Assembly (NCBI GenBank): GCA_023150295.1 | Contig: JAKLLE010000007.1 | Location: forward strand, 14,460 to 78,459 | Origin: Giesbergeria sp. | Lineage (GTDB): Bacteria; Pseudomonadota; Gammaproteobacteria; Burkholderiales; Burkholderiaceae_C | Length of the DNA: 64,000 nucleotides | Reading direction: 5' to 3' | Shown: piece after piece, positions 18,580-59,261 of the stretch | Layout: the number at the start of each line of letters is the position of its first letter | How positions within the stretch are numbered: position 1 is the first letter of the stretch | The notes under the pieces: generated by a model | What the model saw: only the letters and a program-made list of their open reading frames with translations | Databases searched by the model: none | What the model was told of the DNA's origin: nothing | Program-made: the position numbers and the translations under genes

Positions 18580-18846
18580 GATAGCCCCCTGAAAATTGTC
18601 ATCCTGACACAACAAAACTTAACATTTCACATGAATGCTATCAGTAAGATACTTCTCCAGCAAAGGCTTTTCCGGCTTTGGTCTCCTTTGAACGTTGTCA
18701 AAAGCAGACGTTTGCAAGGCCGCTTGGTCGTTGAGGGCATCCACTTGTCGCGACTTCGTCGGTATTGATTACCCTCACCCATCCAGCACGCCATTTCTGA
18801 ACAGTGTCCATTTTTATAATGGGCAGCTTTGCCATTTCGGAGCGTT

Positions 18847-34907: not shown

Positions 34908-35930
34908 ATGCTTGACGCCGCCGTCCTGATTGGCCGTTTCCAGCCCGTGCACCAGGGGCACCTGGCTTTGGTGCACGAAGCCCTGGCGCGGGCGCCACGG
35001 GTGTTCATTGTGGTGGGATCCGCCTGCCAGGCACGCTCGCCCAAAAACCCCTTCACCTGGCAAGAGCGCGCCGCCATGCTGCGCGAATGCGTGCCCGAGA
35101 CCGAACGCCATCGGCTGACGGTACTCCCCATCCGCGACCACTACAACGAACCGCTCTGGGCCCAGGCGGTGCAGCAGGCAGTGGCCGCGCACACGCGCCC
35201 TCAGGCACGCATCGCGCTGGTCGGCCACTTCAAGGACGCCAGCAGCAGCTACCTGGCCGCCTTTCCAGACTGGACGCTGATCCGCATGCAGCGCCAGGGC
35301 GACATGGATGCCAACACCATCCGCGACGCCTACCTCGGCGCCGCCCCTGGCGCGCTTGATGCCGCGCTCTCCCCCCTGGCAGAAGGCGTGCCTGCCGCAA
35401 CGCGCCGCTGGCTCGCAACGTTTTCGCAGACACCGCAGTACGCCCCTCTGCAGGAAGAATGGCGCATGCTGCGCGACTACCGCGCATCCTGGGCATGCGC
35501 GCCCTACCCGCCAATCTTCGTCACGGTGGACGCGGTGGTTCAATGCCAGCAACAGGTCTTGCTCATCCAGCGCGCACACGCGCCTGGCAAAGGACTGTGG
35601 GCCTTGCCTGGCGGCTTTCTGGAGCCACACGAAACGCTCTGGCAATCGTGCCTGCGCGAACTGGCAGAAGAAACCCATTGCGAGCTGCCCGAACCCACCT
35701 GGCGTGCCGCCCTGCAGCAGATCCGCGTATTCGACCACCCCGACCGCAGCCAGCGTGGACGCACCATCACCCATGTGCATCGCTTTGACCTGGGCAATAC
35801 CCCTGTTCCCCCCGTGCGTGCTGACGACGACGCAGCCCTGGCCACCTGGGTACCCATCGACCAGGTAGCCCCCCTGGAAGAACAGTTCTTTGAAGACCAC
35901 TTCCATCTGGTCTCCCAGATGCTGTCATGA
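34908..35930 (+). CDS. Bifunctional NMN adenylyltransferase / Nudix hydrolase (NadM-Nudix)
   Basis: IGRFQPVHQGH nucleotidyltransferase motif, KNPFT..ER, Nudix box GGFLEPHETLWQSCLRELAEET, FEDHFH end. Confidence 0.88.
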   Translation: MLDAAVLIGRFQPVHQGHLALVHEALARAPRVFIVVGSACQARSPKNPFTWQERAAMLRECVPETERHRLTVLPIRDHYNEPLWAQAVQQAVAAHTRPQARIALVGHFKDASSSYLAAFPDWTLIRMQRQGDMDANTIRDAYLGAAPGALDAALSPLAEGVPAATRRWLATFSQTPQYAPLQEEWRMLRDYRASWACAPYPPIFVTVDAVVQCQQQVLLIQRAHAPGKGLWALPGGFLEPHETLWQSCLRELAEETHCELPEPTWRAALQQIRVFDHPDRSQRGRTITHVHRFDLGNTPVPPVRADDDAALATWVPIDQVAPLEEQFFEDHFHLVSQMLS

Positions 35931-37753
35931 CAGCCCCCACCGTCCTGCATGTCGGCAAGTACTTTCCACCCTGTGCGGGAGGGATGGAGGTGTTCCTGGC
36001 AGACCTGATTGCCGAGCAGCGCAGCCAAGGCATCAATGCCCACGCCCTGGTGCACGGCGATCCGCTGCCGGACGACCCCCCCTGGCTCCACCGCGTTCCG
36101 GTGCAAGGCACCATCATCTACGCCCCCATTGCCGTGGGGTTCCGGCGGGCACTGCGGCGCGCCATCCAAGCCCTCCGCCCCGATGTGCTGCACCTGCACA
36201 TGCCCAACAATGCGGTGTTCTGGGCGCTCACGCTGGCGCAGGCCCGCACCATTCCCTGGGTGGTGCACTGGCATGCAGATGTGGTGGCCTCCAGCATCCG
36301 GCTTGCGGTCAAGCTGGCCTATCGCCTTTACCGGCCGTTCGAACAGGCCGTGCTGGAGCAGGCCGAGCGCATCATTGCCACATCGCCCCCCTACCTGCAG
36401 GCCAGCGAACCCCTGGCACCATGGCGCCACAAATGCAGCGTGGTACCGCTGGGGCTCACCGTCCAGCCACCCGCCCCCCCCGATAGTTCGCAGCAACACG
36501 CGCACCCTTGGTCGGCAAACAGTTTCAAACTGCTCGCCATCGGTCGCCTGGCCTACTACAAAGGGTTTGAAACCCTCATTCAGTCCTTGGCCGACCTCCC
36601 CGAGGTCGAACTGGTCATCGCAGGCGAAGGGGAATCCCGTGCAGCGCTGCAGTCGGCCATTCGATCCATCACCCCGGCACGGGGTACCCCACGCGTTCAC
36701 CTGCTGGGCCATGTGGACGACACCCTCAAGTACGCCCTGCTCGCCCGGTGCGATGTGTTTTGCCTGCCATCACGCGAAAGAACCGAGGCCTTTGGACTGG
36801 TGCTGCTTGAAGCCATGTCACAGTCGCGCCCCTGCATTGCGTCGAATTTGGCCGGCTCGGGCATGCCCTGGGTGGTCACCCAGGCACAGGCAGGGCTGCT
36901 GGCCCAGCCCGAAGACCCTGCCAGCTGGGCACAAGCCATTGTCAGCCTGCGACGCAACCCTGCCCTGCGCACAGAAATGGGCCAACGGGGCCACCAGGCA
37001 TTGCAGCAGCAATTCAGCATGGCAGCCTGCGCGCGCCAGTTGCACCGCCACTACGCCACGGCAATGCCCGATGCGGTCTCGCAAGGCCGCCCCCGCGACG
37101 TCCTTATCGTCATCCCTGCCAAAGATGAAGCCACCACCATTGGTGCCATGCTCCAGCAACTGCACGAGGCGGGCTGGAAAGACGTGCTCGTCATTGACGA
37201 CCAAAGCACCGACGGCACCGGCGACATTGCACGGGCGGCCGGTGCACGCGTGCTGCAACCCGTGTTGCCCGTGGGTGCCTGGGGCGGAATGCAGGCAGGC
37301 CTGCGCTACGGCATGCGCCACGGGTTTCGATCCGTCATCACCATGGATGCCGACGGGCAGCACGAGGTGCATGAAATCACCTCCTTGCTCAGCGCCCGGG
37401 CGCAGGCCGATGTGGTCATAGGCTCCTTCCCAGAACGCGCAAGCCGCATGCGAAGAATCGCCTGGGAATGGTTCAGGCGCTTGGCCGGGTTTGACCTGCG
37501 CGATCTGACCTCGGGATTCCGCCTCTACAACCGCCAGGCCATGGCCGTGCTGGCGTCACACCAAGCCACAATGTTGGACTACCAGGACCTGGGCGCCCTG
37601 CTCCTTGTGCGCCGCGCAGGACTCACTATTCAGGAAGTGCCCGTCTCCATGAACCTGCGCAGTGTCGGCGCATCGCGCATCTTCCATTCCTGGCTTAGCG
37701 TTGCACGGTACATGGCAGCCACCACATTGCTGTGCCTGGCACGCTGGCGCTAG
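35927..37753 (+). CDS. Fused glycosyltransferase: GT4 (GT-B) N-terminus plus GT2 DPM-synthase-like C-terminus
   Basis: GGME, EAFGLVLLEAM (GT4); VIPAKDEA, VIDDQSTD, TMDADGQH, DLTSGFR (GT2). Confidence 0.85.
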   Translation: MTAPTVLHVGKYFPPCAGGMEVFLADLIAEQRSQGINAHALVHGDPLPDDPPWLHRVPVQGTIIYAPIAVGFRRALRRAIQALRPDVLHLHMPNNAVFWALTLAQARTIPWVVHWHADVVASSIRLAVKLAYRLYRPFEQAVLEQAERIIATSPPYLQASEPLAPWRHKCSVVPLGLTVQPPAPPDSSQQHAHPWSANSFKLLAIGRLAYYKGFETLIQSLADLPEVELVIAGEGESRAALQSAIRSITPARGTPRVHLLGHVDDTLKYALLARCDVFCLPSRERTEAFGLVLLEAMSQSRPCIASNLAGSGMPWVVTQAQAGLLAQPEDPASWAQAIVSLRRNPALRTEMGQRGHQALQQQFSMAACARQLHRHYATAMPDAVSQGRPRDVLIVIPAKDEATTIGAMLQQLHEAGWKDVLVIDDQSTDGTGDIARAAGARVLQPVLPVGAWGGMQAGLRYGMRHGFRSVITMDADGQHEVHEITSLLSARAQADVVIGSFPERASRMRRIAWEWFRRLAGFDLRDLTSGFRLYNRQAMAVLASHQATMLDYQDLGALLLVRRAGLTIQEVPVSMNLRSVGASRIFHSWLSVARYMAATTLLCLARWR

Positions 37754-37828: not shown

Positions 37829-39187
37829 TTATTGCATAAGCCATCTGTCGATTTCCTGAATATTCTGCTCGACCTCAGCGCCTGCCAAAGCTTTGAGGCG
37901 TACGCGCGCCAGCAAATACCGGTACCGTGCCTCGGCCAAATCGCGCCGTGTCGTCTGTAACTGTTGCTCCGCGTTGAGAACATCTAGCAAAGAACGGCTT
38001 CCGACTTCTTGCGAACGACGACTTGATTTGACCAACTGCTCACCGGAGCGTTCAGCCTGTTCAAGCGCGCGGATTTTCAAGATGCCCTCGCTCACTCCTC
38101 GGTATTCGCCATGTACCCGTACAGCCAGGTCGCGGCGTGCAGCCTCCAGGTTCTCTTGCGCACGAACCAGTTCTGCAACAGCCTGTCGCACAGTGGATTG
38201 GGTGTAGCCACCGCTGAACAATGGAACATTCAGCTGCAACCCCAATGTGCGGTTTGTGTAGCGTGACCCAGGTGAAGTGACGTTCTCACTTGCACTGCGG
38301 GTCAACTGCGCCACAGCGTCAAGCGTAGGGAAATGGCCTCCCTTGGCCTTCTCTATTTCCGCTTGTGCGCTTTCCACACGCGCCTGGAACGCACGCACTT
38401 CAGGGCTGTATGCTTGCGCCTGGGTAACCCAATACTCTACGCTGGCGGGTTCAGGTGCCAAGAGCGGCAGGCGGACTGTGTCCACACTGGCCAAACTTGT
38501 GACTGGTTGGGCAATAATGATTTCAAGCTGCTGTTTCGACTGCGCAAGTTGCTGGCGTGTACTGACAACGTTGGCATTGTCCATGTCCAGGCGAGCCTGT
38601 ACTTCATCAACATCGGTTCGCGTGCCATTGCCAGCAATAAGTGACTTCTTTGCAGCGTCCAGTTGGGTGGTGGTTACAGATTGTTTTTTTTCCGCAAGCG
38701 TCAGTGCCTCCTGGGCGAGAAGTGCCTCCATATAAGCGCCGGTTACTCGCGTTGCCAATTCTTGCTCTTCGCGTTCCAGCGTCGCCTGTGCATCTTCCAC
38801 GATAAAGCCAGCCTGGCGAAGGCCCTCCCATAGTGGCTTGCGATACAAAGGCTGCCGAATTTGCAGGGTCTGATTGTAACTGATGTACCTGTCGCTGCTT
38901 GGTACTTCATTGCCCAGAAGGTTCTTTTGTACTTGATCCAGATCGTTCTTGTAGCGGGCTGCGCTCGCAGTAATACTGGGCAACAACTGCGAACGAGCCT
39001 GCGGTATCCGCTCCAAGGCAGCATCGCGACCTGCCCGCGCCGCTCGTATCCGCGGATCTTGCTCTTGCGCCGCTTTGTAAGCCTCAGAAAGGCCAAGGCT
39101 CCACACCGGTAGGCTGGATGCTATGAGCGCCCCCCCAACGACAGAAGCACATACCCATTGTGGGATCGTTTTCAGAAACATGGTCAC
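37829..39187 (-). CDS. Type I secretion outer-membrane protein, TolC/PrtF family
   Basis: Signal peptide, A...LLPSIT, GTRTDV, G.RSLLDVLNAE OEP repeats. Confidence 0.92.
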   Translation of the reverse strand: MTMFLKTIPQWVCASVVGGALIASSLPVWSLGLSEAYKAAQEQDPRIRAARAGRDAALERIPQARSQLLPSITASAARYKNDLDQVQKNLLGNEVPSSDRYISYNQTLQIRQPLYRKPLWEGLRQAGFIVEDAQATLEREEQELATRVTGAYMEALLAQEALTLAEKKQSVTTTQLDAAKKSLIAGNGTRTDVDEVQARLDMDNANVVSTRQQLAQSKQQLEIIIAQPVTSLASVDTVRLPLLAPEPASVEYWVTQAQAYSPEVRAFQARVESAQAEIEKAKGGHFPTLDAVAQLTRSASENVTSPGSRYTNRTLGLQLNVPLFSGGYTQSTVRQAVAELVRAQENLEAARRDLAVRVHGEYRGVSEGILKIRALEQAERSGEQLVKSSRRSQEVGSRSLLDVLNAEQQLQTTRRDLAEARYRYLLARVRLKALAGAEVEQNIQEIDRWLMQ

Positions 39188-40533
39188 TCCTCCTTCATAG
39201 AGGCAGCCAAGCGCTTGGTCAGCGGGTTGAGCAAATAAGTGAGCATGGAACGCTCCCCCGTCTTGATCACCACCTCTGCTTGCATACCGGGCTGCAGACG
39301 ACGCTGACCCAGAGTCTTCATGCCTTCGGGGGTGACCTTGACACGCGCAAGGTAGTAAGAAACCATCGTGCTGCCCACTTGTTCGTTCAGCAAATCGTTG
39401 GACAAGGACAGCAATTCACCTTCCACAACCAGTTGCGGAGAGTGCGCAAAGGCAGTGAATCGAACATCGGTCTTCAACCCCGGATGTACACGATCGATAA
39501 AGTGTGGATCAATACGCGCCTCCAGGAGCAAGGGCTCATCCTCTGGAACAATATCCATGAGTTTTTGCCCTGGCTGGATGACCCCTCCAACGGTTTGCAC
39601 CGCCAAACCTATGACCTGGCCTGTTGCAGGTGCACGAATTTCAGTACGTTCCAAGTCGGCGCGAACGGCATTCAGCTTTTCTGCATCAGACTGCACCTCG
39701 CGTAGCACCTCGGCAAGCTGTGTCTCCACTTCTTTTCGATACTCTTGTCGTCTCAGGAGACTTTGCTGACGCAGTTCAGCCTTGGTACGCAAAGCGCGCT
39801 GGATATTTCCCTGTAACTCAATGCTAGAAGCATTGATGTCGGCCACCTGACGCTCCAGCTCCAATTGGCGGTTTCTGGGCGCGTAGCCCTCAGATACCAG
39901 AGAGCGGGTGTTTTTTAGCTCCTCTTGCATCAACGCAAGCTGGTTGCGCCGCTGTACAAGCATGCCTTCGTAGGTTTCCAACATCCCCTGCTGGTTTTGC
40001 ATGCTTTCTTCAATGGCTTGAAGGGCGGCACGCAGAGCAAAGCGTCGCGTCTGCAGAAGCTGATTCTGCGTTTGCATTTGTACCTGAATTAGCGGATCGG
40101 AGGCGGCGCTCAGAAGATCGGGGTGAAATTCAATCCGCTCCTTATCGGCTTGTTCGGTCTGCAATCGGCCCTGCATGGCCCGGAGGCTCAAATAACGCTG
40201 GCGGACGCTTTCGTAATTGGCGCGCATGGTTGCAGCATCTAGTTTGATCAGGGGCTGCCCCTCCTGAACATGCTGGCCTTCATGCACCATGACTTGGTGG
40301 ATGATGCCACCGCTCAAGTGCTGCACCGCCTTGCGCTTGGTGTCGATCATCACCGTGCCCAAGCTGGGAACCCCCTCATCGAGCGGTGCCAGTGCCGCCC
40401 AAAGCAAAAAGCCACCAAAACCCAAGCCCAGTGCCCACAAACCAATGCGGGCGGCATGACCTGTGCTGGCGGAGAGAGGGACAGACCCGCTCGCAGGGGC
40501 TGGTATAAGTGAGGGACGTTCGGAATTGGCCAT
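39184..40533 (-). CDS. Type I secretion membrane fusion protein, HlyD/PrtE family
   Basis: TM anchor, KAVQHLSGGII..V.V.EG, IRAPATG, GVIQPGQKLMDIVP, IKTGERSML.YLL.P. Confidence 0.94.
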   Translation of the reverse strand: MANSERPSLIPAPASGSVPLSASTGHAARIGLWALGLGFGGFLLWAALAPLDEGVPSLGTVMIDTKRKAVQHLSGGIIHQVMVHEGQHVQEGQPLIKLDAATMRANYESVRQRYLSLRAMQGRLQTEQADKERIEFHPDLLSAASDPLIQVQMQTQNQLLQTRRFALRAALQAIEESMQNQQGMLETYEGMLVQRRNQLALMQEELKNTRSLVSEGYAPRNRQLELERQVADINASSIELQGNIQRALRTKAELRQQSLLRRQEYRKEVETQLAEVLREVQSDAEKLNAVRADLERTEIRAPATGQVIGLAVQTVGGVIQPGQKLMDIVPEDEPLLLEARIDPHFIDRVHPGLKTDVRFTAFAHSPQLVVEGELLSLSNDLLNEQVGSTMVSYYLARVKVTPEGMKTLGQRRLQPGMQAEVVIKTGERSMLTYLLNPLTKRLAASMKEE

Positions 40534-40643
40534 ACGACAGTAAAAAATTGGACGGTACAAGAGTTATTTGGTGGGCACCAAGGGAACCAACGCATCTTGA
40601 GAAAATTCAGGATCAGAGACGGTCAGCGCAACTTAGCCAAATT

Positions 40644-42425
40644 TCAGGCAGCTTGAGGAAGATGACCGCTGGAAGCATGGTTCTGCGCAGCCAATGCAGC
40701 TTGCTGCTGTACTTGCTGTCTCAAGTGGGCAAGCACCGCATCACGTGGCCCTTGCACTTGAATATGACCATCATGCATCACCACCAATTGATCAGCTACT
40801 GAGATCGCGTGAGGGCGGTGGGTGATCAAAAACACTGTGGCGCCACGGTTTTTGAGTTCGCGCACTGCACGCATCAATGCCTGTTCACCCACATCATCAA
40901 GATTGGCATTGGGCTCATCAAGCACAACCAATGCCGGGCATCCGTAAAGGGCACGGGCCAGACCCACACGCTGGCGCTGACCACCAGAGAGCATCCCACC
41001 AGCTTCACCTATAGGGGTGTCGTAACCTTTGGGAAAACGCAAAATCATTTCATGCAAACCCGCGCAGCGAGCAGCGTCTATCACCTTATCAGAGTCCATT
41101 TCACCAAAGCGCGCTATATTCTCCGCTATGGTGCCGTCAAACAGCTCAATGTCCTGGGGTAGATAACCAAGGTATGGCCCCAACTCCGTACGATCCCAGC
41201 TATTCAGAGGAATTTCATCCAGTAGCACTTCGCCCTTGACATCGGGCCAAATGCCCATGAGGACTCTGGCCAAAGTAGATTTTCCAGAACCTGAAGGGCC
41301 TAGCACCACCGTGACTGACCCTGTGGACGCTTGCAGATTGATGCCTTTGAGGATGGGCTGGATACGTTCAGGGGCACTTGCAAACACATTTTGCAGTTCC
41401 ACGGCTCCTTTTGGAGCCACCCTCGACAATGCCTGATCACGCTCGGGATGCAATTCGAGCAAGGTTTGCAAACGCACAAAAGCTTGGCGCGCACCCAAAT
41501 AGTTTCTCCAAGTGCCACCAATTTGATCGATAGGTGCCAGAGCGCGCGTCATCAGCACGTTGGCAGCAATCATGGCGCCAGCCGTCAACTGACCATCGAT
41601 GACCAGTAACGCTCCCGCAGCAAGCGCAAGTGACTGTTGGCAGTAACGAACCCACTTGCTAATAGCGCCGATACGGTGCGAAAGCGCTTGCGCGCATCCC
41701 TGCTCATACATTGCATGGGAATGACGCACCACCCAGCGTTGCCGAAGCCCCGCCAGCATTCCCATGGACTCGACGACTTCGGTATTGCGAAGCTTGGCCT
41801 GCAAGAAATGATTTACTTCGAGCAGCGCTTTGGAGGCCTTTTCTGAGGGAGCTACCGTGCGCCGATGGCCGAACCAAGCCAGCGCCATTTGCACCGCAGT
41901 AAATCCCAATGCAACCCAACCCAAAAATGGATGCAAGAAAAACAGCACTGCAAGGTAGATGGGCATCCAGGGCAAATCAAAGAACGCAATTGTTCCATTG
42001 CCCGTCAAGAATTGACGCAACTCGATCAAGTCGTGAAAAGCCCGCTGCGCTGGAGCGCCAGATTGACTGAGGTTGGCCTCAAAACTTGCATTAAATACAC
42101 GCGTACTCAACAGTGCATCCAGTTTGACTCCCGTGCGCACCAAAAGACGCGATCTCGACCATTCAGCAAAAGCCATGACCGCAAATAAAAACAAGGTGAT
42201 CAGCGATACGAAAACCAATGTCACTTCACTGCGGCTCACCAGGACACGGTCATAGACCTGGAGCATGTATAACGTGGGTGCCAGCATGAGCACGTTGACA
42301 ACCATACTGAACAAGCCAACGACGATAAATTCACGTCGAAATGTGAACAGCGCGTGTGCCAGTTCGGTGCGCCGAATAGAACCAGATGTGCGGGGAGGAG
42401 GAGCCATGATGGGGTTTGCCTGCAT
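40644..42425 (-). CDS. Type I secretion ABC transporter, PrtD family, paralogue B
   Basis: LYMLQVYDRV, GPSGSGKS, LSGGQRQR, LDEPN, HRP. Confidence 0.94.
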   Translation of the reverse strand: MQANPIMAPPPRTSGSIRRTELAHALFTFRREFIVVGLFSMVVNVLMLAPTLYMLQVYDRVLVSRSEVTLVFVSLITLFLFAVMAFAEWSRSRLLVRTGVKLDALLSTRVFNASFEANLSQSGAPAQRAFHDLIELRQFLTGNGTIAFFDLPWMPIYLAVLFFLHPFLGWVALGFTAVQMALAWFGHRRTVAPSEKASKALLEVNHFLQAKLRNTEVVESMGMLAGLRQRWVVRHSHAMYEQGCAQALSHRIGAISKWVRYCQQSLALAAGALLVIDGQLTAGAMIAANVLMTRALAPIDQIGGTWRNYLGARQAFVRLQTLLELHPERDQALSRVAPKGAVELQNVFASAPERIQPILKGINLQASTGSVTVVLGPSGSGKSTLARVLMGIWPDVKGEVLLDEIPLNSWDRTELGPYLGYLPQDIELFDGTIAENIARFGEMDSDKVIDAARCAGLHEMILRFPKGYDTPIGEAGGMLSGGQRQRVGLARALYGCPALVVLDEPNANLDDVGEQALMRAVRELKNRGATVFLITHRPHAISVADQLVVMHDGHIQVQGPRDAVLAHLRQQVQQQAALAAQNHASSGHLPQAA

Positions 42426-44198
42426 TCAAGCCGCAGGGGCTGCGAGAGTGGTTAGGGTTGCTGCGGCGGAGGCTTGCGTCTGTTCGGACGCTTGCTGGCT
42501 TGCTGGATTGAGCGCAGCCAACACCTCATCTCGCGATCCAAAGGCATGTTGCACGCCCTCGCGCAGCACCAGCATCTTGTCGACAACACCCAGCACGCTC
42601 ATACGATGAGTCATCACCACAAAGGTGGTGCCGCGGGCTTTCATATGGGCAATTGCATTCAACAAGGCTCTGTCCCCAGCCTCGTCCAAACTGGAGTTGG
42701 GTTCGTCCAGCACGACGAAGACGGGTTCCGAATAGAGTGCTCTGGCCAGGGCAACGCGTTGACGTTGACCACCTGAAAGAATGGCACCATCGCGCCCGAC
42801 GGAGCTGTCGTAGCCCGAAGGGAGCGAGAGAATGAAATCGTGCAGTCCAACCAGTTTTGCGGCGGCCTCCACCTTGGTTCTATCAATTTCACCAAATCGC
42901 GCAATGTTTTCGGCAAGAGTGCCTTCAAGCAATTCCACGCCCTGAGGTAGATAGCCAAGGCTGGGACCAAGCTCCTGCTTGTTCCACGAAAACACATCCA
43001 CACCATCCAATCGCACCTTGCCCCCCATGGAAGGCCAGAGCCCCACTAGCAGGCGCGCCAAAGTCGATTTACCAGATGCCGAGGGCCCCACTACGCCCAG
43101 AACCTCACCAGGAGACAGTGCAAAAGTGACGCCGCGCAAAATAGGAGCGCTGCTGCCTGGTGCCGTGGCCACCACACCCTCTACCGTCAAATGCCCCTTG
43201 GGTGCTGGCAAGGGCATGTTTTCGTCCGGCTCGGGCACAGTGCTCAACATACCGTCCAATCGCCTCCAGGCATCACGCAAGTTGACCACTGCGCGCCACT
43301 GGCTCACTGCCATCACCAGAGGCGCCAACATGCGTCCGCCCAGAACAGAAGCGACAATCATCATCCCAGCACCGCCAGCCAAAGTGTTTTGCAACACGAG
43401 CCAAGCTCCCAGACCCAGCAGCGCCGAGCCCATGACCGTTTGCAAGAACTTGCTCCCCGCCTGGAAAGCACCGCCTTTGTCCGAAGCTTGTGCCTGCAAG
43501 TTCAAAAAATCGCGCTGCTTGTCCATCCACAGGCGGTGGATGTGCTTCAGCATCCCCATCGCCTCTATCACTTCCGCATTTCGAAGCGCGCCATCTATGT
43601 AGTGCTGCGCTCCAATGGCAGCGCGGTTGGCTTGCACCAATGGCGGGTTGGTAGCGCGCTCATTGAACCATGCAAGCAGCACCTGAACCACCGCGCCAGC
43701 CACTGCAAACCAACCCAATAACGGGTTGGCAAGAAACAGAATCACCATGAACACCAGCGATACCGGCGACTCCATCACTGCGCCGACGACAGGGTGCGGA
43801 AAAAAATCACGCAGCGTGCGCAAGTCGTTCATGGGCTGAGCACTTGCCTGGCCCAATCGACGCAAGTTGGTTTCGTACATCGCCTGGAACACACGAGGAG
43901 CCATGCGCCGATCAAACACGCTTCCCGCCTCGCGCAGCGTCTCCGAGCGCGCCCAGTCCAGCACTTCCATGACCACATATGCCAGCAACACACCCAGAGT
44001 CAGCATGGCCAGGGTCATGTGGTTTCGGCTGTTAACTACCCGACCGTATACCTCAAACATGTAGAGCGTAGGCACCAAAATCAGCAGTGCACCGATCAAG
44101 GCAAAAAAGAAAGCACGCCTCAAATAGGGCTTCAAATCGAGTATTGCCGCTCGCAACTCGGAAGGGGACGAACCGATCGTTCGTTGCTGAAGATTCAT
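42426..44198 (-). CDS. Type I secretion ABC transporter, PrtD family, paralogue A
   Basis: LYMFEVYGRV, GPSASGKS, LSGGQRQR, LDEPNSSLD, THR. Confidence 0.94.
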   Translation of the reverse strand: MNLQQRTIGSSPSELRAAILDLKPYLRRAFFFALIGALLILVPTLYMFEVYGRVVNSRNHMTLAMLTLGVLLAYVVMEVLDWARSETLREAGSVFDRRMAPRVFQAMYETNLRRLGQASAQPMNDLRTLRDFFPHPVVGAVMESPVSLVFMVILFLANPLLGWFAVAGAVVQVLLAWFNERATNPPLVQANRAAIGAQHYIDGALRNAEVIEAMGMLKHIHRLWMDKQRDFLNLQAQASDKGGAFQAGSKFLQTVMGSALLGLGAWLVLQNTLAGGAGMMIVASVLGGRMLAPLVMAVSQWRAVVNLRDAWRRLDGMLSTVPEPDENMPLPAPKGHLTVEGVVATAPGSSAPILRGVTFALSPGEVLGVVGPSASGKSTLARLLVGLWPSMGGKVRLDGVDVFSWNKQELGPSLGYLPQGVELLEGTLAENIARFGEIDRTKVEAAAKLVGLHDFILSLPSGYDSSVGRDGAILSGGQRQRVALARALYSEPVFVVLDEPNSSLDEAGDRALLNAIAHMKARGTTFVVMTHRMSVLGVVDKMLVLREGVQHAFGSRDEVLAALNPASQQASEQTQASAAATLTTLAAPAA

Positions 44199-44833
44199 AG
44201 ACTTTCTTCCACCATCACATATTCAGGGATTTCAGCATCTTGGGATTGCAATTCAGATGCCGATACATCGTCCGCGCTCACCTCGCCATCGGCGGTGCTG
44301 GGCATCGTCATATCGGAAAAGGAGAACGACAGGCTGTAGGAACCACCACCCGCCTGTGCAAGCACGATCTCACGCAGCTTGTGGGTTTGAAATGCGCTTT
44401 CTGCCTGTGTACCCAGAGTGATTGAAAACCGCATTCTTCCGTCCAAGGTAAACATTGACAATTGCCCACCCTTGATGCTCAAAGTGTGCCTGTCAAAATA
44501 CACAGGGCACGAATCAGCAAAGCGCAACAGCGGCAGCGGCTTTCCATCGAGACGCGAGAGGTGGAACGGACTGTGCGGATGTTGGAATACCACCCTGCAG
44601 GTGCGCGAGACAGAATAGATCGCATTGCACACCATTTGGGAGCCCATCTGCGGAAAGCGCTCACGCAACTGGCGATAGGTCAAGTGATGCAGAGCCACTC
44701 GATTCCATACCCGTGTCTGCTGAACCACCCCAGCCACTGCATTGCAAACCTGAGCAAAGCCCTGCTGCAACGCCTGCAATCGCTGCACCTGCTCGGGCGA
44801 TGTATCCAGCGGGATGGAGAGGGTAAAATTCAT
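44195..44833 (-). CDS. TnpB-like protein with only the N-terminal WED/REC region (no RuvC), acidic C-terminal tail
   Basis: Pattern TLSIPLDTSPEQ..L....F..VCN......WN..ALHHLTYRQLRERFP.MGSQMVCNAI...F......FDRHTLS....LSMFTLDGRMRF...Y.L matches the IS605 OrfB N-terminal half as recalled. No G.D.G RuvC-I or zinc finger. ATGA-coupled to prtD. Confidence 0.7.
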   Translation of the reverse strand: MNFTLSIPLDTSPEQVQRLQALQQGFAQVCNAVAGVVQQTRVWNRVALHHLTYRQLRERFPQMGSQMVCNAIYSVSRTCRVVFQHPHSPFHLSRLDGKPLPLLRFADSCPVYFDRHTLSIKGGQLSMFTLDGRMRFSITLGTQAESAFQTHKLREIVLAQAGGGSYSLSFSFSDMTMPSTADGEVSADDVSASELQSQDAEIPEYVMVEESL

Positions 44834-44870
44834 ATAGGATTTGCATTGTACCGCAAAAATTCATATAGGA
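44825..44870 (-). promoter_or_regulatory. 15-bp direct repeat pair flanking a -10-like TACAAT at the T1SS operon start
   Basis: AAAATTCATATAGGA at 44825-44839 and 44856-44870; minus-strand TACAAT at 44850-44845. Confidence 0.6.
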
Positions 44871-44978
44871 ATCCCCGCCGTTGCCGCACCGACAATTTAG
44901 TGCAATGCTCTGTCGCCCGCGTTGGTGTGACAATCCCCTCTTTGCCTTCCTCCGCAATCTACTCATCCTTGGAGTGAC

Positions 44979-45344
44979 ATGCCGTCCATGCAACTGAGCA
45001 CCAGCCTGATTGGCTTGGCGCTTGCGGTGCTGATTCTTTATCTGGTGCGCCGCGACCACTTGTATCTCATGCATGGGCTGCTGTGGTCTGTGGTCGCCGC
45101 TGGTGCAGCCATCCTCGGCGCGTGGCCCGGGCTGATCGATGCAATAGCGACCCGGCTGGGATTTGCATATCCCCCCGCACTGCTGTTGCTGCTGGCATGT
45201 GCAGTACTGTTGCTGAAGGCCTTGCACTCGGACATGTTGCATACACGCCTGGAACGCGACGTCCGCCGTCTCAACCAACGTCTGGCACTGCTGGAACTTG
45301 AGTTGCAAGAGCGCAAGCACGGAATGGATCGCAACGGGCCCTAG
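44979..45344 (+). CDS. DUF2304-family small membrane protein
   Basis: Three hydrophobic segments, LVRRDHL...LLW, LG..YPP, then RRLNQRLAL coiled tail. Confidence 0.75.
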   Translation: MPSMQLSTSLIGLALAVLILYLVRRDHLYLMHGLLWSVVAAGAAILGAWPGLIDAIATRLGFAYPPALLLLLACAVLLLKALHSDMLHTRLERDVRRLNQRLALLELELQERKHGMDRNGP

Positions 45345-45410: not shown

Positions 45411-46898
45411 ATGGTTCTTCATACTTTGCACCCGGTCATTTTGTGTGGTGGTGCAGGCACGCGCCTGTGGCCTTTGTCCCGCGAAGCCTACCCCAAGCAG
45501 TTTTTGGCGCTGCAAGGCGGCACCACCACCATGCTTCAAGACACGGCACTGCGCCTTGATGGCCTGAATGCCAGTGTGCCTCGCCACGCACCCTGGGTCG
45601 TCTGCAACCAGGAACACCGCTTTCTGGCGGCACAACAGCTGCAAGAAGCGGGGGTCGCCGACGCGAAGATGTTGTTGGAGCCATGCGCTCGCAACACCGC
45701 TCCAGCGTTGACACTGGCCGCCTTGGCGGCGCACGCCGCCGATCCGGGTGCAGTCTTGCTTGCGATGCCTGCAGACCACGTGATAGCTAACGCACCCGCC
45801 TTGCACGCCGCGGTCATGGCGGCTTGGCCCATGGCCTGCGACGGCGCGATGGTGACGTTTGGAATTTCCCCGCAGCGCCCAGAAACGGGATATGGCTACA
45901 TCCACCAAGGACGCGCCGTTGCCGATGGTGCAGGACGTGAGATCGCCGGATTCGCCGAAAAACCCAGCGCTGAGAAAGCCTGCGCCTACTTGGAAAGCGG
46001 CGAATATCTTTGGAACGCGGGCTTGTTCATGGTTCGCGCAGATCAATGGCTCAAAGCGCTGCAAGCACTGCAGCCCCAGATGCTGATGCAATGCCAACAC
46101 GCCATGGTGGAGTGCACTCAGGACGCTGATTTCATTAGGCCCCAGGCAACAATCTTTGCCAACTGTCCAGCAGACTCCATCGACTATGCCGTCATGGAGC
46201 ACCTGCCTCATCAGGGTTCCCAGCTTGGGATACCCGCCAGGGTGGTGGCATTGGATGCAGGCTGGTCTGATTTGGGCGCCTGGGACGCATTGTGGGAGGT
46301 GCTTGAGCGCGATTCTCAAGGCAACGCTCAGGTTGTGCAGGAGCCGGGTCAGGTGTTGACCGTTGACACCAGCAACACCCTGGTGCTGGCTGAAAGCGCT
46401 CTGGTCGCGACTGTGGGGCTACGCAACGTAGTGGTCGTGCAGACTCCAGATGCCGTCTTGGTTGTCGATAAAAGCCGCACCCAGGATGTAAAGAAGGTGG
46501 TTCAAGCGCTGCAGGCGCAGCCTGCGCAGCGCCGTACGCTGGCCCAGGCCCACCGCAAAGTGCATCGCCCCTGGGGTTGGTACGACAGCATTGATGCTGG
46601 AGACAGATTTCAAGTCAAGCGCATCGTGGTCCATCCGGGGGCCAGTCTGAGCCTACAAATGCACCACCACCGCGCCGAACACTGGGTGGTAGTCAAAGGG
46701 ACTGCAGAAGTCACCAACGGTGAGCGTACTTTCTTGCTAGGAGAGAATGAATCTACCTTCATCCCCCTAGGCCACATCCATCGCCTCAAAAACCCAGGCA
46801 AAGTTCCGCTGGAAATCATCGAGGTGCAGTCTGGAAGCTACTTGGGCGAGGACGATATTGTTCGATATGAAGACTCCTATGGGCGTACCGCGTGCTGA
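45411..46898 (+). CDS. manC: Mannose-1-phosphate guanylyltransferase / mannose-6-phosphate isomerase
   Basis: PVILCGGAGTRLWPLSR..PKQF, EP..RNTAPA, WSDLGAW; C-terminal cupin RPWG, HHHRAEHW. Confidence 0.95.
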   Translation: MVLHTLHPVILCGGAGTRLWPLSREAYPKQFLALQGGTTTMLQDTALRLDGLNASVPRHAPWVVCNQEHRFLAAQQLQEAGVADAKMLLEPCARNTAPALTLAALAAHAADPGAVLLAMPADHVIANAPALHAAVMAAWPMACDGAMVTFGISPQRPETGYGYIHQGRAVADGAGREIAGFAEKPSAEKACAYLESGEYLWNAGLFMVRADQWLKALQALQPQMLMQCQHAMVECTQDADFIRPQATIFANCPADSIDYAVMEHLPHQGSQLGIPARVVALDAGWSDLGAWDALWEVLERDSQGNAQVVQEPGQVLTVDTSNTLVLAESALVATVGLRNVVVVQTPDAVLVVDKSRTQDVKKVVQALQAQPAQRRTLAQAHRKVHRPWGWYDSIDAGDRFQVKRIVVHPGASLSLQMHHHRAEHWVVVKGTAEVTNGERTFLLGENESTFIPLGHIHRLKNPGKVPLEIIEVQSGSYLGEDDIVRYEDSYGRTAC

Positions 46899-47990
<1,092 letters not shown>

Positions 47991-47992
47991 AA

Positions 47993-48910
47993 ATGATGCC
48001 ATCAACGCCAGTCACTCGGCGGGTATTGGTGACCGGACTGGGTGGATTCACAGGGCGCTATGTTCAAGCCGCACTGGAGCAACGCGACTGGGACGTCTGG
48101 GGGTTGGGTGCACAGCCAGCCCCTCAACATGCCGCTCACTATGTGCAGGCGGATCTGACCGACAGTGCCGCCTTGCAACAAGCCTTGGCAGAAGTTCGTC
48201 CCCAGGCGGTCATCCATCTTGCAGCCATTGCATTTGTCGGCCACGACGACGCCGACGCCTTCTACCACGTCAACCTGATGGGCACACGCCATCTGCTGGC
48301 TGCATTGGTGCAGCTGTCGGAGCCGCCAGCCCATGTGCTGCTTGCCAGCAGCGCCAATGTCTATGGCAACCAGACCGGCGGCATGCTGGACGAGGAAACA
48401 ATACCGCAACCTGCCAACGACTATGCCGTCAGCAAACTGGCCATGGAGCACATGGCGCGGCTGTGGTCAACACGCCTGCCCATCACCATCGTTCGGCCAT
48501 TCAACTACACAGGTGTAGGTCAATCGCCTGACTTTTTACTGCCCAAGATCGTAATGCACTTCAAGAGCCGCGCTGCCAGAATCGAACTGGGCAATCTTGA
48601 CGTCTGGCGCGATTTTTCTGACGTGCGTGCCATAGCCGATGCCTATTGCCGCCTACTTGACACGCCCTCCGCCGTCGGTACCACAGTCAACCTCTGTTCT
48701 GGTCAGAGCCACAGTCTGCGGGAAATCATTGGCATGGCTGAGGAAATCACCGGTCATCACATACAAGTACACACCAATCCCGCCTTCGTACGCGCCAATG
48801 AAGTCAGAACGCTGCTGGGCTCCCCGGAGAGGCTGAAAGCGCTCGTTGGACCCGACTGGATGTGCCCACCGCTGCAAGAGACCCTGCGCTGGATGTTGGA
48901 GACAGCGTGA
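47993..48910 (+). CDS. rmd: GDP-6-deoxy-D-lyxo-4-hexulose reductase-like SDR (GDP-D-rhamnose synthesis)
   Basis: TGLGGFTG, HLAAIAFVGH, SSANVYG, YAVSK YxxxK, RPFNYTG; directly after gmd. Confidence 0.8.
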   Translation: MMPSTPVTRRVLVTGLGGFTGRYVQAALEQRDWDVWGLGAQPAPQHAAHYVQADLTDSAALQQALAEVRPQAVIHLAAIAFVGHDDADAFYHVNLMGTRHLLAALVQLSEPPAHVLLASSANVYGNQTGGMLDEETIPQPANDYAVSKLAMEHMARLWSTRLPITIVRPFNYTGVGQSPDFLLPKIVMHFKSRAARIELGNLDVWRDFSDVRAIADAYCRLLDTPSAVGTTVNLCSGQSHSLREIIGMAEEITGHHIQVHTNPAFVRANEVRTLLGSPERLKALVGPDWMCPPLQETLRWMLETA

Positions 48911-50100
48911 CTGTGACCACACTTGGCATCGATCTGATCCTGGGCGCCGACAGCATCAATGCTCCACTCACAGGTATTGGTCGCTACGCGCTGGAGCTTG
49001 CGCGTGGCATGCCAGAGCACCCTGATATCAGGCAAGTTCGCTACTTTGTGCTCAAAGGCTGGGCTCCACTACAGTCATTGCTCAATGCAGAAGGCGGAGG
49101 GGGCGTTCACACTGCTTCCAGCAAGCCCAGCCTCCGCAGCAAACTAGCCGGCAATCGCTTCGCAGTGCGCGCCTACCATGCGCTGGTTCCGCACCTGCAG
49201 CGATGGCAGCTCAAAGACCACGCCAATGCGATCTATCACTCGCCGAACTACTTCCTGCCACCATTCGCTGGTCGCACAGTCGCCACCATCCACGACCTTT
49301 CCCACCATCTATACCCACAGTTCCATCCCGCAGCCCGCATTGACTACATGCGCCGCGCTCTGCCCGAGAGTTTGGGCCGGGCCGATCATTTGATCACCGA
49401 TGCAGAATCCGTCCGTCAAGAACTGATCGAGCACTTTGGCTATCCCGCTGAGCGCATCACAGCCATCCCACTGGCTGCAAACTCGGCATTTCGACCGCAC
49501 TCTGCACAAGAAATTCAGGCCACATTGGCGCCATTGCGCTTGCAGCCACACGGATATAGCCTCTATGTGGGCACCATTGAGCCGCGGAAAAACCTGGATC
49601 GCCTTCTGGCGGCGTACGAGTCTTTGCCCCAAGCACTGCGCATGCGCTACCCACTCGTCATGGCAGGTGGCGCTGGCTGGTGTTCCGAAAATACACACAA
49701 ACGCATGAGCAGCGCTGCCAACGCGGGCTGGCTACACTATCTGCGTTATGTGGCGCAAGCCGATCTACCTGCACTCTACGCGGGTGCCCGGGTCTTTGTT
49801 TACCCTTCGCTGTATGAGGGTTTCGGCCTGCCGGTTCTGGAGGCCATGGCATCGGGGGCCCCGGTCATCACTTCCAACTGCTCATCTTTGCCCGAGGTCG
49901 TCGGCACCGCTGCGCTCCAGGTGCAACCGGAAGACGTCACTCACTTGGCCGCCTCGCTCTCACGCGCCCTGCAAGATGACACGTGGAGGGCCAACGCCCG
50001 TGAAGCAGGATTGGCACGCGCAGCACAATTCAGCTGGCAGCGCTGCATTGATCAGACCGTGCGGGTCTATGAGCGATTGAAAGCCAGTCCACAAAGATAA
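48907..50100 (+). CDS. GT4 glycosyltransferase (WbpX/WbpY/WbdA-like)
   Basis: [32 protein letters not shown]; GTGA overlap with rmd. Confidence 0.88.
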
Positions 50101-50144: not shown

Positions 50145-53100
50145 TCAGGGGCAGGTATAGGCGACAACTCCTGCCGCCATGTTCGCCATAGTCGTCGGAA
50201 GTCGAGCAATTGCAGCATCGGCTGCAGCATCACCGTTGACACAATTCAGATAGGCCCGACCCAGGGCCAAGCTCTGACCATAGGCATTGGCATATTGTGA
50301 ATTGGCAGCCAGTGCTTTGGTGAATTCCAAAGCCGCACGACGCTTTGCATTGAGGATTGCGCTGTCTGCATCGGCTGCGTTGTAAGCCACGGTATACGCA
50401 ATCTCTGGAACAGAAATCACACCCTGGTTCACCTGCTGTGTCCAATACGTCAGACCAGACGACAAAGGATCGCGGCTGAACAGCTGCCTGAATACCTGCG
50501 TCACCTGTGCCGACACACCCAAACCGCCATAAATGGCCTGTGACTCTGCCGATTTGTAGAAATCGTCTACCAGAATGCGGTAATTACCACCGCTTTGCGT
50601 CATCAGACCCTCGTAGTAAGACTGCCCACTTGCAGCCGCCGGGCGTCCGAAATATCCGGCAAACATCGTAACGACCTGCTGCGTGTAGGCGCTGGTTCCC
50701 CCGGTGAAGTTTGCAGTCACATTCCGTGCGCTGTCCAGCAAAACGGTACAGGTATCTGTCGTGCCGCTGCAGGCCCCCCCCCAACCGGCAAAACTGCTAC
50801 CCGCACTCGCCACAGCACGCAGCGTAATGGTAGTACCCGTATCAACCGTGGCAGAGCATGCACTACCGCAATTGATCAGAGGAGCGCCCAAGGCCAGTTG
50901 GGTGTGCTTTTGTATCCAAGGTTGATAGTTGGCCACCCGGGTGTACACACCGGGGTAGTTGGGCTGGGCGCAGCTATTTCCCCAGCTCACGATACCTGCC
51001 AGTACATGACCACCGCTGCCATTGGACACAACCAAGGGGCCACCACTGTCCCCCTGGCAGGAGTCTTTTCCTCCTGCAGGGTAGCCAGCACAAATCATGT
51101 TGCTGGAAATATTGGTGCTCCCGTATGCCGACTGCGCAGCACAGTCACTGCTGGTCAGCAAGGGCACCTGAACCTGCATCAACATGCTCGAAGTGCTGCC
51201 ACCAGGGCTGGTAGTACCCCAGCCTGTCACTGTAGCCAAGGTATTGGTGGAGGCCAACTGGCTTTCTTGAGATCCAGACAGCGGGGCGACCACATTCACC
51301 GTACTGGACAATGGCATTGCGCCGGACAAGCGCAGCAAGGCAATATCGTTGTCGTAAGTGCTGGGCTCATACGCATGGTGCTTGACGATGCTGCTCACAC
51401 CAAGCACCACGCCGCCGCTGTCTTTTTGCAAAGAACCGGCACGCACAGTGACGCTGGAGGGAGAGACCGTTACACCCGCGTTGTCGATGCAATGCGCCGC
51501 TGTCAACACCCATTGGTCAGACACCAGCGTGCCACCACACAAGAACGAGCCTTGTGCCGTCGTGATATTGAGCCGCACTTGCCACGGCCAAGATCCCAGT
51601 TGAGCGGCTGTGCCACCCACAATTCGCGCATCCACCGCCCCACCGGTGACAGGGAGTTGTGCAGACACGCTGGATGTAGACGAAACCGTACCCTGACCCG
51701 TGCCCGCTTTGCTTACATTCAATGTGACCTTGGATGTCTGCGTTCGGTAGGTCACCCTCAGAGACACCCCACTGTAGGCCGCATAGCCGTTCAGCAAAAC
51801 GTGGTACGTGCCAGCTGCTGGGCTGACAATGCCACAGCTCTCTGTATTGCCGTTGTTCTTCGATGAACAGTCATACGATTGCAACGTCGGTGCAGTGCCC
51901 GCCTTCACAAACAGATCCACATCTCCCGTACCGCCCGATGTGGACACAACCAAATTGGTCGCACCGGCAGGAACCTGCACTGAATAGCTCGCACTGTTGT
52001 TCGTAGCACCAGCAAGACCCGTCTGATTCATCAACGTTACAGAACCGCCCACCACACCGGTAGTGTTGAATACAGCGGACACACTGGAGCTGCTGGTACC
52101 TGCAGCAACCGTGCAACTGCCCGTGCCGCTGCAAGCCCCCCCCCACCCTGCGAAAGTGCTGCCACTGTCGGCCTGAGCGGACAGAGTCACAGCCGTAGAG
52201 GTGGCAAAGTTACCCATTGCGCTAGAGCACGACGATCCGCAGCTCAAGCCACTGGGGCTACTGCTGACAGTGCCGGTGCCACTGCCTGATTTGGAGAGCG
52301 AAATCAAACGCGTGGACGAAGCCAGATTGAAAGTGGCCGTCACATTGCTGGCGCTACTCAAGGTCACATTGCAACTGCTGGAAGTTCCAGAACAAGCGCC
52401 GCTCCAGCCAGCAAACGTGCTGCCAGCCGCCGCTTGGGCCGTCAGGGTGACCTGCGTGTTGGCCGCAAAACTGGCAGAGCAAGTGCTGCCACAGCTGATG
52501 CCTGCAGGCGAGCTGCTGACCGTACCACTGCCAGTGCCCTGGCGCCCCACCGACAGGGTGTAGTTTTGCACTGCACTGTCCAGCGGCAGATTGGCTTGCG
52601 CACTGCTTTGCAACACACTGGCCACTCGCCAGGGATTCACGCCCCGGGTATGGTTGGTGCCGAAATTGAAGCTGACGTTGGCCAAACCCGGGCTCAGCAA
52701 ATTGCAGTAGCTCATGATAGTGCCAGCACCTGTTCCCGACGTCCCCCCGGAGGTAGATCCCACCCCCGGCAAAACACCACTGCGCGAAGTGCCTCCCAGC
52801 TGGGTGACGCACTGTCCACTGGTGCCGGAAACACAGCAATCGATAGCCCCGCCCTGGCTGGAGCCCATCGGCGGATTGTCAAAGTTGTGCGTATGCGTGC
52901 TGCCAAACGCATGGCCTATCTCGTGCGCAACCACCACCGAATCCCACACCACCTGAGGATTGCTGGCCGAGAAACTGCCCGTAATGCTGCCGCTGACGCC
53001 ATAGGCATAGGTCTTGCTGCCGCTATCGAGCGTATCCACATAGGCGATACCGCCGCCCGTGTTGCGCCCACTCAGCAAATGGACATGGTGACGCGCTTGA

Positions 53101-54319: not shown

Positions 54320-55123
54320 GTGCCTGGCCTTCTCCTAGACGTTCTCCGGTACCGCGGCTTCATCATCACCAGCACTGCACGCCAGATTCAGGGCCAATAC
54401 CAAGGCTCACTGTTTGGCGTTGCCTGGCTGTTCCTGGGGCCGCTGGCCCTGCTGGCGGTGCACACGGTCATCTTTTCCAACCTGTTCCAGAACCGTCTGG
54501 CAGGTGTGGACTCGGCTTTTTCCTACAGCATTTACCTCTGCGCAGGCCTGCTGCCCTGGCTGTACTTCAGCGACTCTGTCAGCCGCCTGACCGGCACCTT
54601 CGTGGCCCAGGCCGGGCTCATCAAGAAGGCGCAGTTCCCGCGCATCTGCCTGCCCCTCATCGCCATGGGCGTGTCCAGTTTCAATTTTGCGGTCATTGCA
54701 GGCTTGTTTCTGGGCTTTTTGCTCATTACCGGCAACTGGCCCGGAATGGTGCTTCTTGCAGGCCTGCCAGCACTCAGCATTCAAATAATGCTGTCATTGG
54801 GGCTGGGAGTGTTTCTGGGTGTAATAAACGTGTATTTTCGTGACGTCGGCCATCTGGTGGGTGTTGTATTTCAGTTTCTATTCTGGCTCACGCCCATTGT
54901 TTACCCTCTCAATATGCTGCCCGCCTGGGCGCAAGCCGCCATCAAGGCCAACCCCATGACCGTGCTGGTGGAGCACTACCAAAGCGTCATCCTGTATGCC
55001 CGCATTCCCTCGGCCCAGGCGTTCCAGGGCTTGGCGTGGGTGGCACTGCTGGCGGGCGTCTGCCTGTTTCTGGCTTTCAAAATCCACCGCGACCTGGGCG
55101 GCGAAATGGCGGACGAACTCTGA
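54320..55123 (+). CDS. wzm: Polysaccharide ABC transporter permease
   Basis: GTG start after GGAG; YQGSLFGVAW, YFRDVGH, FWLTPIVYP, NPM. Confidence 0.92.
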   Translation: MPGLLLDVLRYRGFIITSTARQIQGQYQGSLFGVAWLFLGPLALLAVHTVIFSNLFQNRLAGVDSAFSYSIYLCAGLLPWLYFSDSVSRLTGTFVAQAGLIKKAQFPRICLPLIAMGVSSFNFAVIAGLFLGFLLITGNWPGMVLLAGLPALSIQIMLSLGLGVFLGVINVYFRDVGHLVGVVFQFLFWLTPIVYPLNMLPAWAQAAIKANPMTVLVEHYQSVILYARIPSAQAFQGLAWVALLAGVCLFLAFKIHRDLGGEMADEL

Positions 55124-55125
55124 GC

Positions 55126-59192: not shown

Positions 59193-59261
59193 GCTGCGCA
59201 CACAAAAAAACCGACGATCCATACCCCTATACACAAACACCCCATACCACCGCACAGGCCC

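Follow-up and report, generated by a model that had tools for sequence, protein, structure and literature searches.

In a 64,000-nucleotide stretch of a Giesbergeria sp. genome (assembly GCA_023150295.1, contig JAKLLE010000007.1, positions 14,460 to 78,459; hereafter the window), the first gene of a type I secretion system (T1SS) operon encodes the WED/REC half of an IS605 TnpB, as established by fold and sequence homology. The gene, which we call TnpB-N, was confirmed as an open reading frame (ORF) at 44195-44833 (-) with an ATG start and a 212-aa product. We favour, with modest confidence, the reading that TnpB-N is a guide-free autorepressor of this operon that reads the transposon-adjacent motif (TAM).

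A TnpB derivative without a nuclease lobe

With 36 homologues as input, AlphaFold2 gave a model that is confident over residues 1-178, with block values of the predicted local distance difference test (pLDDT) of 86-97 and a mean of 81.7 over the whole protein. The model consists of a β-strand (residues 3-8), three helices (13-40, 45-59 and 64-84) and a β-rich region (111-174), followed by a disordered tail (179-212). This layout matches the WED/REC architecture that the original prediction had read into the sequence. In a Foldseek search against the PDB, the top 31 matches to the model were all Cas12f, TnpB, Cas12k, Cas12n, TranC or Fanzor chains, the best having an E value of 2.9e-6, a probability of 1.0 and a TM-score of 0.59 when normalised to all 212 residues including the tail.

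The kinship with TnpB also extends to sequence. The single protein returned zero matches against Pfam, NCBIfam, PHROGs and PDB sequences, and no Pfam model covers the family (no PF01385 and no PF07282 match). An exhaustive profile search with the TnpB-N family yielded 489 representative clusters, mostly of 180-240 aa, and the full-length TnpBs P0255 (380 aa, E 1e-25) and P0264 (377 aa, E 2e-23) match profile positions 1-175. Both full-length proteins have OrfB_IS605 (PF01385) and Cas12f1-like TNB (PF07282) domains. Because the P0255 gene adjoins a Y1 TnpA gene and lies between matching subterminal hairpins, it belongs to a genuine IS200/IS605 element. Across the WED and REC lobe, TnpB-N is about 30-43% identical to this sister TnpB clade.

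The last strand of TnpB-N, SYSLSFSFSD, aligns about 10 residues N-terminal to the RuvC-I motif GVDxGEN of full-length TnpBs, so the protein does end where RuvC-I should start, as had been predicted. Beyond this strand, a disordered tail stands in place of the nuclease lobe. A RuvC domain with the D-E-D catalytic triad is absent from TnpB-N, as judged from the alignment and the missing PF01385 match, and so is a TNB/zinc finger domain, given the missing PF07282 match and the disorder of the tail. The residues held invariant with the sister TnpBs fall into the REC helices, where they form the segments N44-R45-V46-x-x-H49-x-x-x-Y53-x-x-x-R57 (NRVxLHxxxYxxxR) and G64-x-Q66-M67-x-C69-N70-A71-I72 (GSQMxCNAI), and into the adjacent WED strand (V111-x-x-D114-x-x-T117; VxxDxxT). 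In ISDra2 TnpB, recognition of the TAM duplex falls to WED and REC residues only (Y52, S56, K76, F77, Q80, T123 and N124), while the omega-RNA scaffold is held by WED and RuvC, with RuvC being required (PMC10097598). The invariant TnpB-N segments are spaced in a way similar to the TAM contacts of ISDra2, in a comparison made by pattern matching.

The TnpB-N family comprises 4,712 members in a collection of 5.8 billion proteins, where every named one is 'hypothetical', and is present in 379 species-level genomes. The best 80 loci all belong to Comamonadaceae or other Burkholderiales, and the carrier genera include Acidovorax, Comamonas, Giesbergeria, Simplicispira, Rhodoferax, Polaromonas, Delftia and Ramlibacter. 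Divergent members, down to approximately 30% identity, all terminate after the same strand. By neighbour-joining, one split separates all of the genuine short proteins (48/48) from 67 full-length TnpB N-termini, which fits a single domestication event. The three exceptions to this split are visibly broken TnpBs, and broken TnpBs have variable truncation points, unlike the constant boundary of TnpB-N. TnpB-N is single-copy, syntenic and vertically inherited, and it evolves as slowly as the ATP-binding cassette (ABC) proteins of the operon. The expectation that its homologues would be consistently RuvC-less, syntenic with a T1SS and under purifying selection, with a ratio of non-synonymous to synonymous substitution rates (dN/dS) below 1, is borne out across the family.

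Selection is unevenly distributed along the protein. The dN/dS ratio is 0.14 in the core, about 0.8 in the linker and 0.11 in the tail motif, whose codons vary synonymously. The core is basic (pI 9.95, net charge +8, equal to the family median of +8) and contains conserved Cys and His residues; RTX or glycine-rich repeats are absent from TnpB-N. The acidic tail has a net charge of -11. Its linker segment (residues 173-200) differs in both length and sequence among homologues, and the motif that follows reads EIPEYVMVEE in A1 and [IL]P-x-Y-hydrophobic-x-hydrophobic in A3. Conservation of the two glutamates is explained in part by their codons, which double as the prtD1 Shine-Dalgarno sequence (GAGGAGG). 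In three homologues (P0129, P0131 and P0132), about 100 extra low-complexity residues rich in Ser, Thr, Gln and Pro come after LPEYV, showing that the motif need not be C-terminal.

The secretion operon and its promoter

With a PrtD-subfamily ABC protein (TIGR01842, twice), an HlyD adaptor and an outer-membrane efflux protein (OEP), the operon is a PrtDEF-type T1SS. Synteny, gene overlap and promoters were compared in 91 fetched TnpB-N loci. The order TnpB-N, PrtD1, PrtD2, HlyD, OEP is kept in 100% of the loci with enough downstream sequence, and it stays constant while the upstream neighbours of the operon change from genus to genus. The position of TnpB-N as first gene, its stop codon overlapping the prtD1 start as ATGA (44195-44198), was correctly foreseen; the ATGA overlap recurs in 82 of the 91 loci, and most of the others have equivalent overlaps. 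A TnpB-N member of 38% identity heads a single-ABC T1SS, and one of 33% identity, from an AT-rich genome, has a PrtD-like gene next downstream. Comparing neighbourhoods across genera revealed no other conserved regulator gene near the operon and no conserved cargo gene beside it.

Tandem paralogous PrtD-type ABC genes (window 40644-44198 (-)) are found throughout Comamonadaceae, and a single-ABC version is headed by a distant member (L092 2424-4145). The two tandem genes suggest a heterodimeric exporter. In two Giesbergeria/Simplicispira metagenome-assembled genomes (L013 8001-8627 and L026 8001-8633), the usual TnpB-N stop is lost, and the ORF enters the prtD1 start in the other frame for about 6-8 codons and ends in CTGA; this may reflect natural variation or an assembly error. 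The prtD2-hlyD gap was considered as the site of a conserved RNA or of a small ORF, a reading rejected because the gap is unconserved.

Alignment of the regions upstream of TnpB-N brought out a 12-bp quasi-palindrome, TTC(A/C)TATA(T/G)GAA. All 83 unique promoters contain at least two hits to this motif (≤2 mismatches): a copy lies at the start codon in 71 of the 83, another is centred near -28 and a third is often present near -41. A TAnnnT -10 hexamer at -17/-16, flanked by palindromes, occurs in 58/83 promoters and is TG-extended in 46/83; sites containing TTCAT flank both the -10 element and the predicted +1. A Shine-Dalgarno-like sequence for TnpB-N was found in 0/83 promoters, suggesting that the operon mRNA probably lacks a leader or carries one of about 5 nt. 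A generic sigma-70 scanner detected no -35/-10 pair at the TnpB-N promoter, a result compatible with an extended -10 whose -35 position is taken by an operator. Contigs from two genuine metatranscriptome RNA runs cover TnpB-N together with its junction to prtD1 and end at 44808 and 44811, leaving the intergenic region uncovered; these ends are weakly consistent with the predicted transcription start site (TSS).

The exact 11-mer is confined to the TnpB-N promoter in 84/91 loci (approximately 1.2 Mb). It occurs twice in the window, against 0.11 expected, and beyond these two promoter copies the window contains no further strong palindrome sites, matches with two mismatches being at background level. 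The window copies are direct repeats, and in most clades the copies are inverted. TnpB-N members of 33-47% identity have the perfect palindrome TTCATATATGAA at the same positions. Pairing of the upstream repeat with the start-codon repeat in an RNA hairpin, which would sequester the ATG, was rejected: the orientation of the repeats varies, those in the window are direct, and the G/T variants are uncompensated. Direct repeats and uncompensated single-base variants make protein-binding sites the better reading. In this clade only, a DUF2304 membrane-protein gene (window 44979-45344 (+)) diverges from the TnpB-N promoter region, and the 145-nt intergenic region between the two genes is otherwise unconserved across genera.

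The arms of the palindrome correspond to the likely TAM of the sister transposons. We fetched 80 loci of sister full-length TnpBs (L100-L179) and located their left-end and right-end hairpins. In these IS200/IS605 elements (L095 1-1894; L100-L179), the two hairpins are near-identical (GCGACTTCAGTCGCGGG), and the right end terminates in ...GGGTTATTTAC. In 23/24 left-end junctions, the conserved start of the element is immediately preceded by TTCAT, with unrelated flanks farther upstream, and the boundary is fixed by a single element that recurs with different flanks in L120 and L121. From these junctions we infer that the TAM of the sister clade is TTCAT, which is identical to the palindrome arms at TnpB-N promoters.

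The sister elements also encode a well-conserved omega-RNA region of about 155 nt with 38 predicted base pairs (model R1). An nhmmer profile and the covariance model R1, both derived from 36 sister-clade right ends and scoring 161-164 bits on controls, detected no omega-RNA-like element in the 64-kb window and none in 40 T1SS-linked loci. An Rfam scan returned nothing relevant. Since its stop codon overlaps prtD1, the TnpB-N gene has no 3' untranslated region (UTR). In agreement with the original observation of a gene without tnpA or obvious transposon ends, no tnpA (Y1_Tnp) gene lies within ±10 kb of TnpB-N, and left-end or right-end hairpins were not found in the window.

Candidate mechanism and rival explanations

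In the mechanism that we favour, TnpB-N is a domesticated IS200/IS605 TnpB that has kept only the WED and REC lobe, the reader of the TAM on double-stranded DNA. Loss of the entire RuvC/TNB nuclease lobe has removed most of the surface that binds the omega-RNA scaffold. The basic core would bind TTC(A/C)TATA(T/G)GAA without a guide RNA, probably as a dimer, each palindrome pairing the ancestral TAM TTCAT with an inverted copy of itself. The TnpB-N promoter has two or three of these palindromes, at -35 and over the +1/start codon; their occupancy would occlude RNA polymerase, and the outcome would be negative autoregulation of a leaderless TnpB-N/prtD1/prtD2/hlyD/OEP operon. Translational coupling would link PrtD1 synthesis to TnpB-N. 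The acidic disordered tail with EIPEYVMVEE is probably a docking segment for a partner or a modulator of DNA binding. A further variant, in which the WED-REC lobe is an autonomous guide-free binder of a TAM-palindrome operator and the T1SS can sequester or export the repressor by way of its acidic tail, strikes us as improbable. If true, it would tie transcription of the operon to transporter occupancy, an FlgM/ExsE-like checkpoint for type I secretion.

Several points weigh against guide-free autorepression. A PDB profile search with an N-terminal-only alignment gave no TnpB match, and the mapping of TAM-contact residues is therefore by pattern only; a profile that included full-length TnpBs matched PDB structures through RuvC alone. 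The TSS is a predicted one, with thin metatranscriptome contigs as its RNA support. The spacing of the candidate operators is variable (27, 31 or 40 bp), and because the start-codon copy overlaps codons 1-2 (Met-Asn), its conservation may partly reflect a coding or leaderless-initiation constraint. The left-end cleavage point was deduced without empty sites, so the TAM could shift by one base. A trans-encoded or novel guide RNA may exist elsewhere in the genome, and a regulator encoded elsewhere could bind the palindromes in place of TnpB-N, whose own binding is predicted.

The proposal that TnpB-N is a TldR-type RNA-guided repressor turns on a guide RNA that is of a new type or has its gene elsewhere: the protein would read the TAM, and the guide would pair 3' of each TTCAT (ATAGGAA...). 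TldRs are likewise TnpB-derived, promoter-targeting and TAM-dependent, some of them with guides of 9-11 nt, and in Comamonadaceae conservation extends past TTCAT to the following ATAGGA, with both sites facing the -10 element. However, the RuvC lobe as the source of most omega-RNA scaffold contacts is wholly missing, the searches of the window and 40 loci for an omega-RNA were negative, Rfam gave no match, and the gene has no 3' UTR. The perfectly symmetric TTCATATATGAA of distant members is, moreover, typical of a protein dimer site, and we regard RNA guidance as unlikely. Strict co-inheritance and translational coupling with PrtD1 could instead point to a T1SS accessory or secretion-coupled factor (a cytoplasmic adaptor or chaperone, or a regulator sequestered or exported through its tail like FlgM or ExsE), whose main partners would be PrtD or the cargo and not DNA. 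Such a role would suit the conserved acidic disordered C-terminal tail, its short hydrophobic motif under selection and the lack of a conserved cargo gene beside the operon. It would leave the TAM-bearing palindromes and the near-invariant TAM-reading segments unexplained, and in members with about 100 further residues the tail motif lies well before the C-terminal end; we hold this explanation, too, to be rather doubtful.

The same absence of another conserved substrate nearby, together with the first position in the operon and the acidic disordered C-terminus, might cast TnpB-N itself as a secreted T1SS substrate, comparable to the first-gene substrates HasA and RsaA. This is very improbable: T1SS substrates are characterized by an acidic protein, RTX or Gly-rich repeats and an extreme C-terminal signal, whereas TnpB-N combines a strongly basic core and conserved Cys/His with a nucleic-acid-binding fold, lacks such repeats and evolves as slowly as the ABC proteins. 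Finally, the sister clade does include truncated and broken TnpBs (P0250, P0237, P0269, P0260 and P0265), so that a decaying pseudogene fragment could have come to lie upstream of a T1SS by chance. The comparative data refute this reading. The family has thousands of intact homologues with a constant boundary, all genuine short proteins fall in one clade and the core is under purifying selection, which upholds the earlier argument for a clean truncation over random decay; complete synteny, a conserved promoter and translational coupling add to this. Guide-free autorepression remains the reading that we prefer. As for the regulatory role in S-layer secretion that had been proposed originally, the conserved TAM-containing palindromes at TnpB-N's own promoter lend indirect, sequence-level support to regulation as such. 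S-layer secretion as the target is unsupported: no S-layer or RTX gene is present in the 64-kb window, and in other genera the operon lacks the polysaccharide and protease neighbours that it has here.

Genomic setting and relation to known systems

The features of the locus are collected in Table 1.

Table 1. Annotated features of the TnpB-N operon and its promoter (window coordinates).
Feature	Position	Strand	Basis
Upstream candidate operator copy, TTCCTATATGAA, at -35 position	44860-44871	-	Motif scan; upstream copy in all clades, either orientation
-10-like hexamer TACAAT; predicted TSS ~5 nt before ATG	44845-44850	-	Promoter alignment
Candidate operator copy, aTCCTATATGAA, includes ATG start codon (44831-44833)	44829-44840	-	Motif scan; also in distant members
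RuvC-less TnpB derivative gene (TnpB-N)	44195-44833	-	ORF list; Foldseek; TnpB matches to family profile
Core, residues 1-172: WED β1, REC helices, WED β-barrel	44318-44833	-	AlphaFold2; dN/dS; charge
Acidic low-complexity linker, variable, residues 173-200	44234-44317	-	Disorder, pLDDT <50
Tail motif EIPEYVMVEE, conserved, residues 201-210	44204-44233	-	Homologue alignments; dN/dS
ATGA stop/start overlap TnpB-N/prtD1 (translational coupling)	44195-44198	-	ORF coordinates
prtD1, T1SS ABC permease/ATPase, 590 aa	42426-44198	-	TIGR01842, E 1.5e-190
prtD2, paralogous T1SS ABC permease/ATPase, 593 aa	40644-42425	-	TIGR01842, E 1.5e-206
HlyD-family T1SS periplasmic adaptor	39184-40560	-	TIGR01843, E 2.8e-107
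Outer-membrane efflux protein (OEP, TolC/PrtF-like)	37829-39187	-	PF02321 on matching gene, same contig; synteny

In the window, the operon is surrounded by a polysaccharide/O-antigen-type cluster (45411-50100 (+), 55036-63271 (+) and 35927-37753 (+)). The cluster encodes ManC, GDP-mannose dehydratase/epimerase-type enzymes, several GT4/GT2 glycosyltransferases, Wzm, a Wzt ABC ATPase with Wzt_C and an AT3-SGNH acyltransferase, and it probably prompted the S-layer analogy. A 1,292-aa protein (50145-54023 (-)) combines a Reprolysin-type metalloprotease, Flg_new_2 repeats, PPC, a trypsin domain and a C-terminal DUF4214; no RTX repeats were found in it. It is possibly a secreted protein near a T1SS, and its gene is missing beside the operon in Giesbergeria and other genera. 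The window further contains a PilQ-like secretin with two AMIN domains (13525-15660 (-)), unrelated to TnpB-N, as well as GltB (2645-7378 (-)) and a class A penicillin-binding protein (18829-21225 (+)).

TldRs are TnpB-like nuclease-dead repressors (Wiegand et al., bioRxiv 10.1101/2023.11.30.569447; 10.64898/2026.09.22.753285). They share with TnpB-N the immobilised, nuclease-dead TnpB derivative fixed by host genes, one TldR clade even lying beside an ABC transporter operon. TldRs act at a TAM-bearing site that overlaps a promoter; the TTCAT-containing candidate sites at the TnpB-N promoter are the predicted counterpart, with steric repression as the likely action. The original prediction had TldRs keeping a mutated RuvC fold; this holds for some, but many are partly truncated C-terminally. 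TldRs still possess a RuvC lobe, mutated or in part truncated, and bind a guide RNA of about 100 nt encoded alongside them, whereas TnpB-N is without the whole RuvC/TNB lobe, has no 3' UTR and no local omega-RNA, and its candidate sites are TAM palindromes. The partner differs as well: it is a T1SS exporter whose operon TnpB-N leads, while a TldR gene comes last. We class TnpB-N as a probable TnpB-derived regulator that lacks the RuvC scaffold and adjacent guide RNA of TldRs.

IS200/IS605 TnpBs (ISDra2, PDB 8exa/8bf8; sister P0255/P0264) have a homologous WED and REC lobe with the same conserved segments; unlike them, TnpB-N has no RuvC, TNB/zinc finger, omega-RNA, left-end and right-end hairpins, TnpA or multiple copies. 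The halobacterial 'RuvC-only' TnpBs of about 220 aa (Altae-Tran et al. 2023, PMC10691335) are, similarly, non-mobile half-sized TnpB derivatives fixed in one lineage. They are the mirror image of TnpB-N, keeping RuvC without WED/REC where TnpB-N keeps WED/REC without RuvC. The dCas12f-sigmaE and Cas12k systems (PDB 9n9c, 7pla), Foldseek neighbours of TnpB-N, are exapted DNA binders that recruit or block other machinery; in contrast to TnpB-N, both are RNA-guided, keep the RuvC fold and have a sigma factor or transposase as partner. Operons of the PrtDEF/HasDEF/RsaDE type also combine an ABC protein (TIGR01842), an HlyD adaptor and an OEP with a small gene in front. That leading gene encodes cargo or an acyltransferase there, whereas here it is TnpB-N, followed by two paralogous ABC genes.

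Published TnpB exaptations comprise TldR clades (fliC, csrA, oppF), Sigma-, SpoIIE-, flagellin-, DppD-, RHH/MazE-, PrimPol- and GATase-TnpB and the halobacterial RuvC-only form; none of these is wholly without RuvC, and none is linked to a T1SS. A literature search on TnpB with type I secretion, or on RuvC-less TnpB, found nothing relevant, and we know of no description of a transposon-derived DNA-binding module that leads a T1SS operon. Censuses of TnpB seeded with RuvC would miss this family. Comamonadaceae are common in wastewater and freshwater, and TnpB-N provides their widespread, uncharacterised two-ABC T1SS with a likely regulator. The protein would define a compact (~170-aa) sequence-specific DNA-binding module and offers a directly testable case of an RNA-guided nuclease turning into a protein-only DNA binder. 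The Cas12, TldR, dCas12f-sigmaE and Cas12k domestications keep the RuvC scaffold and the RNA guide. TnpB-N would represent a different route, with nothing but the TAM-reading lobe surviving, now as an ordinary protein transcription factor whose operator still bears the TAM of the transposon.

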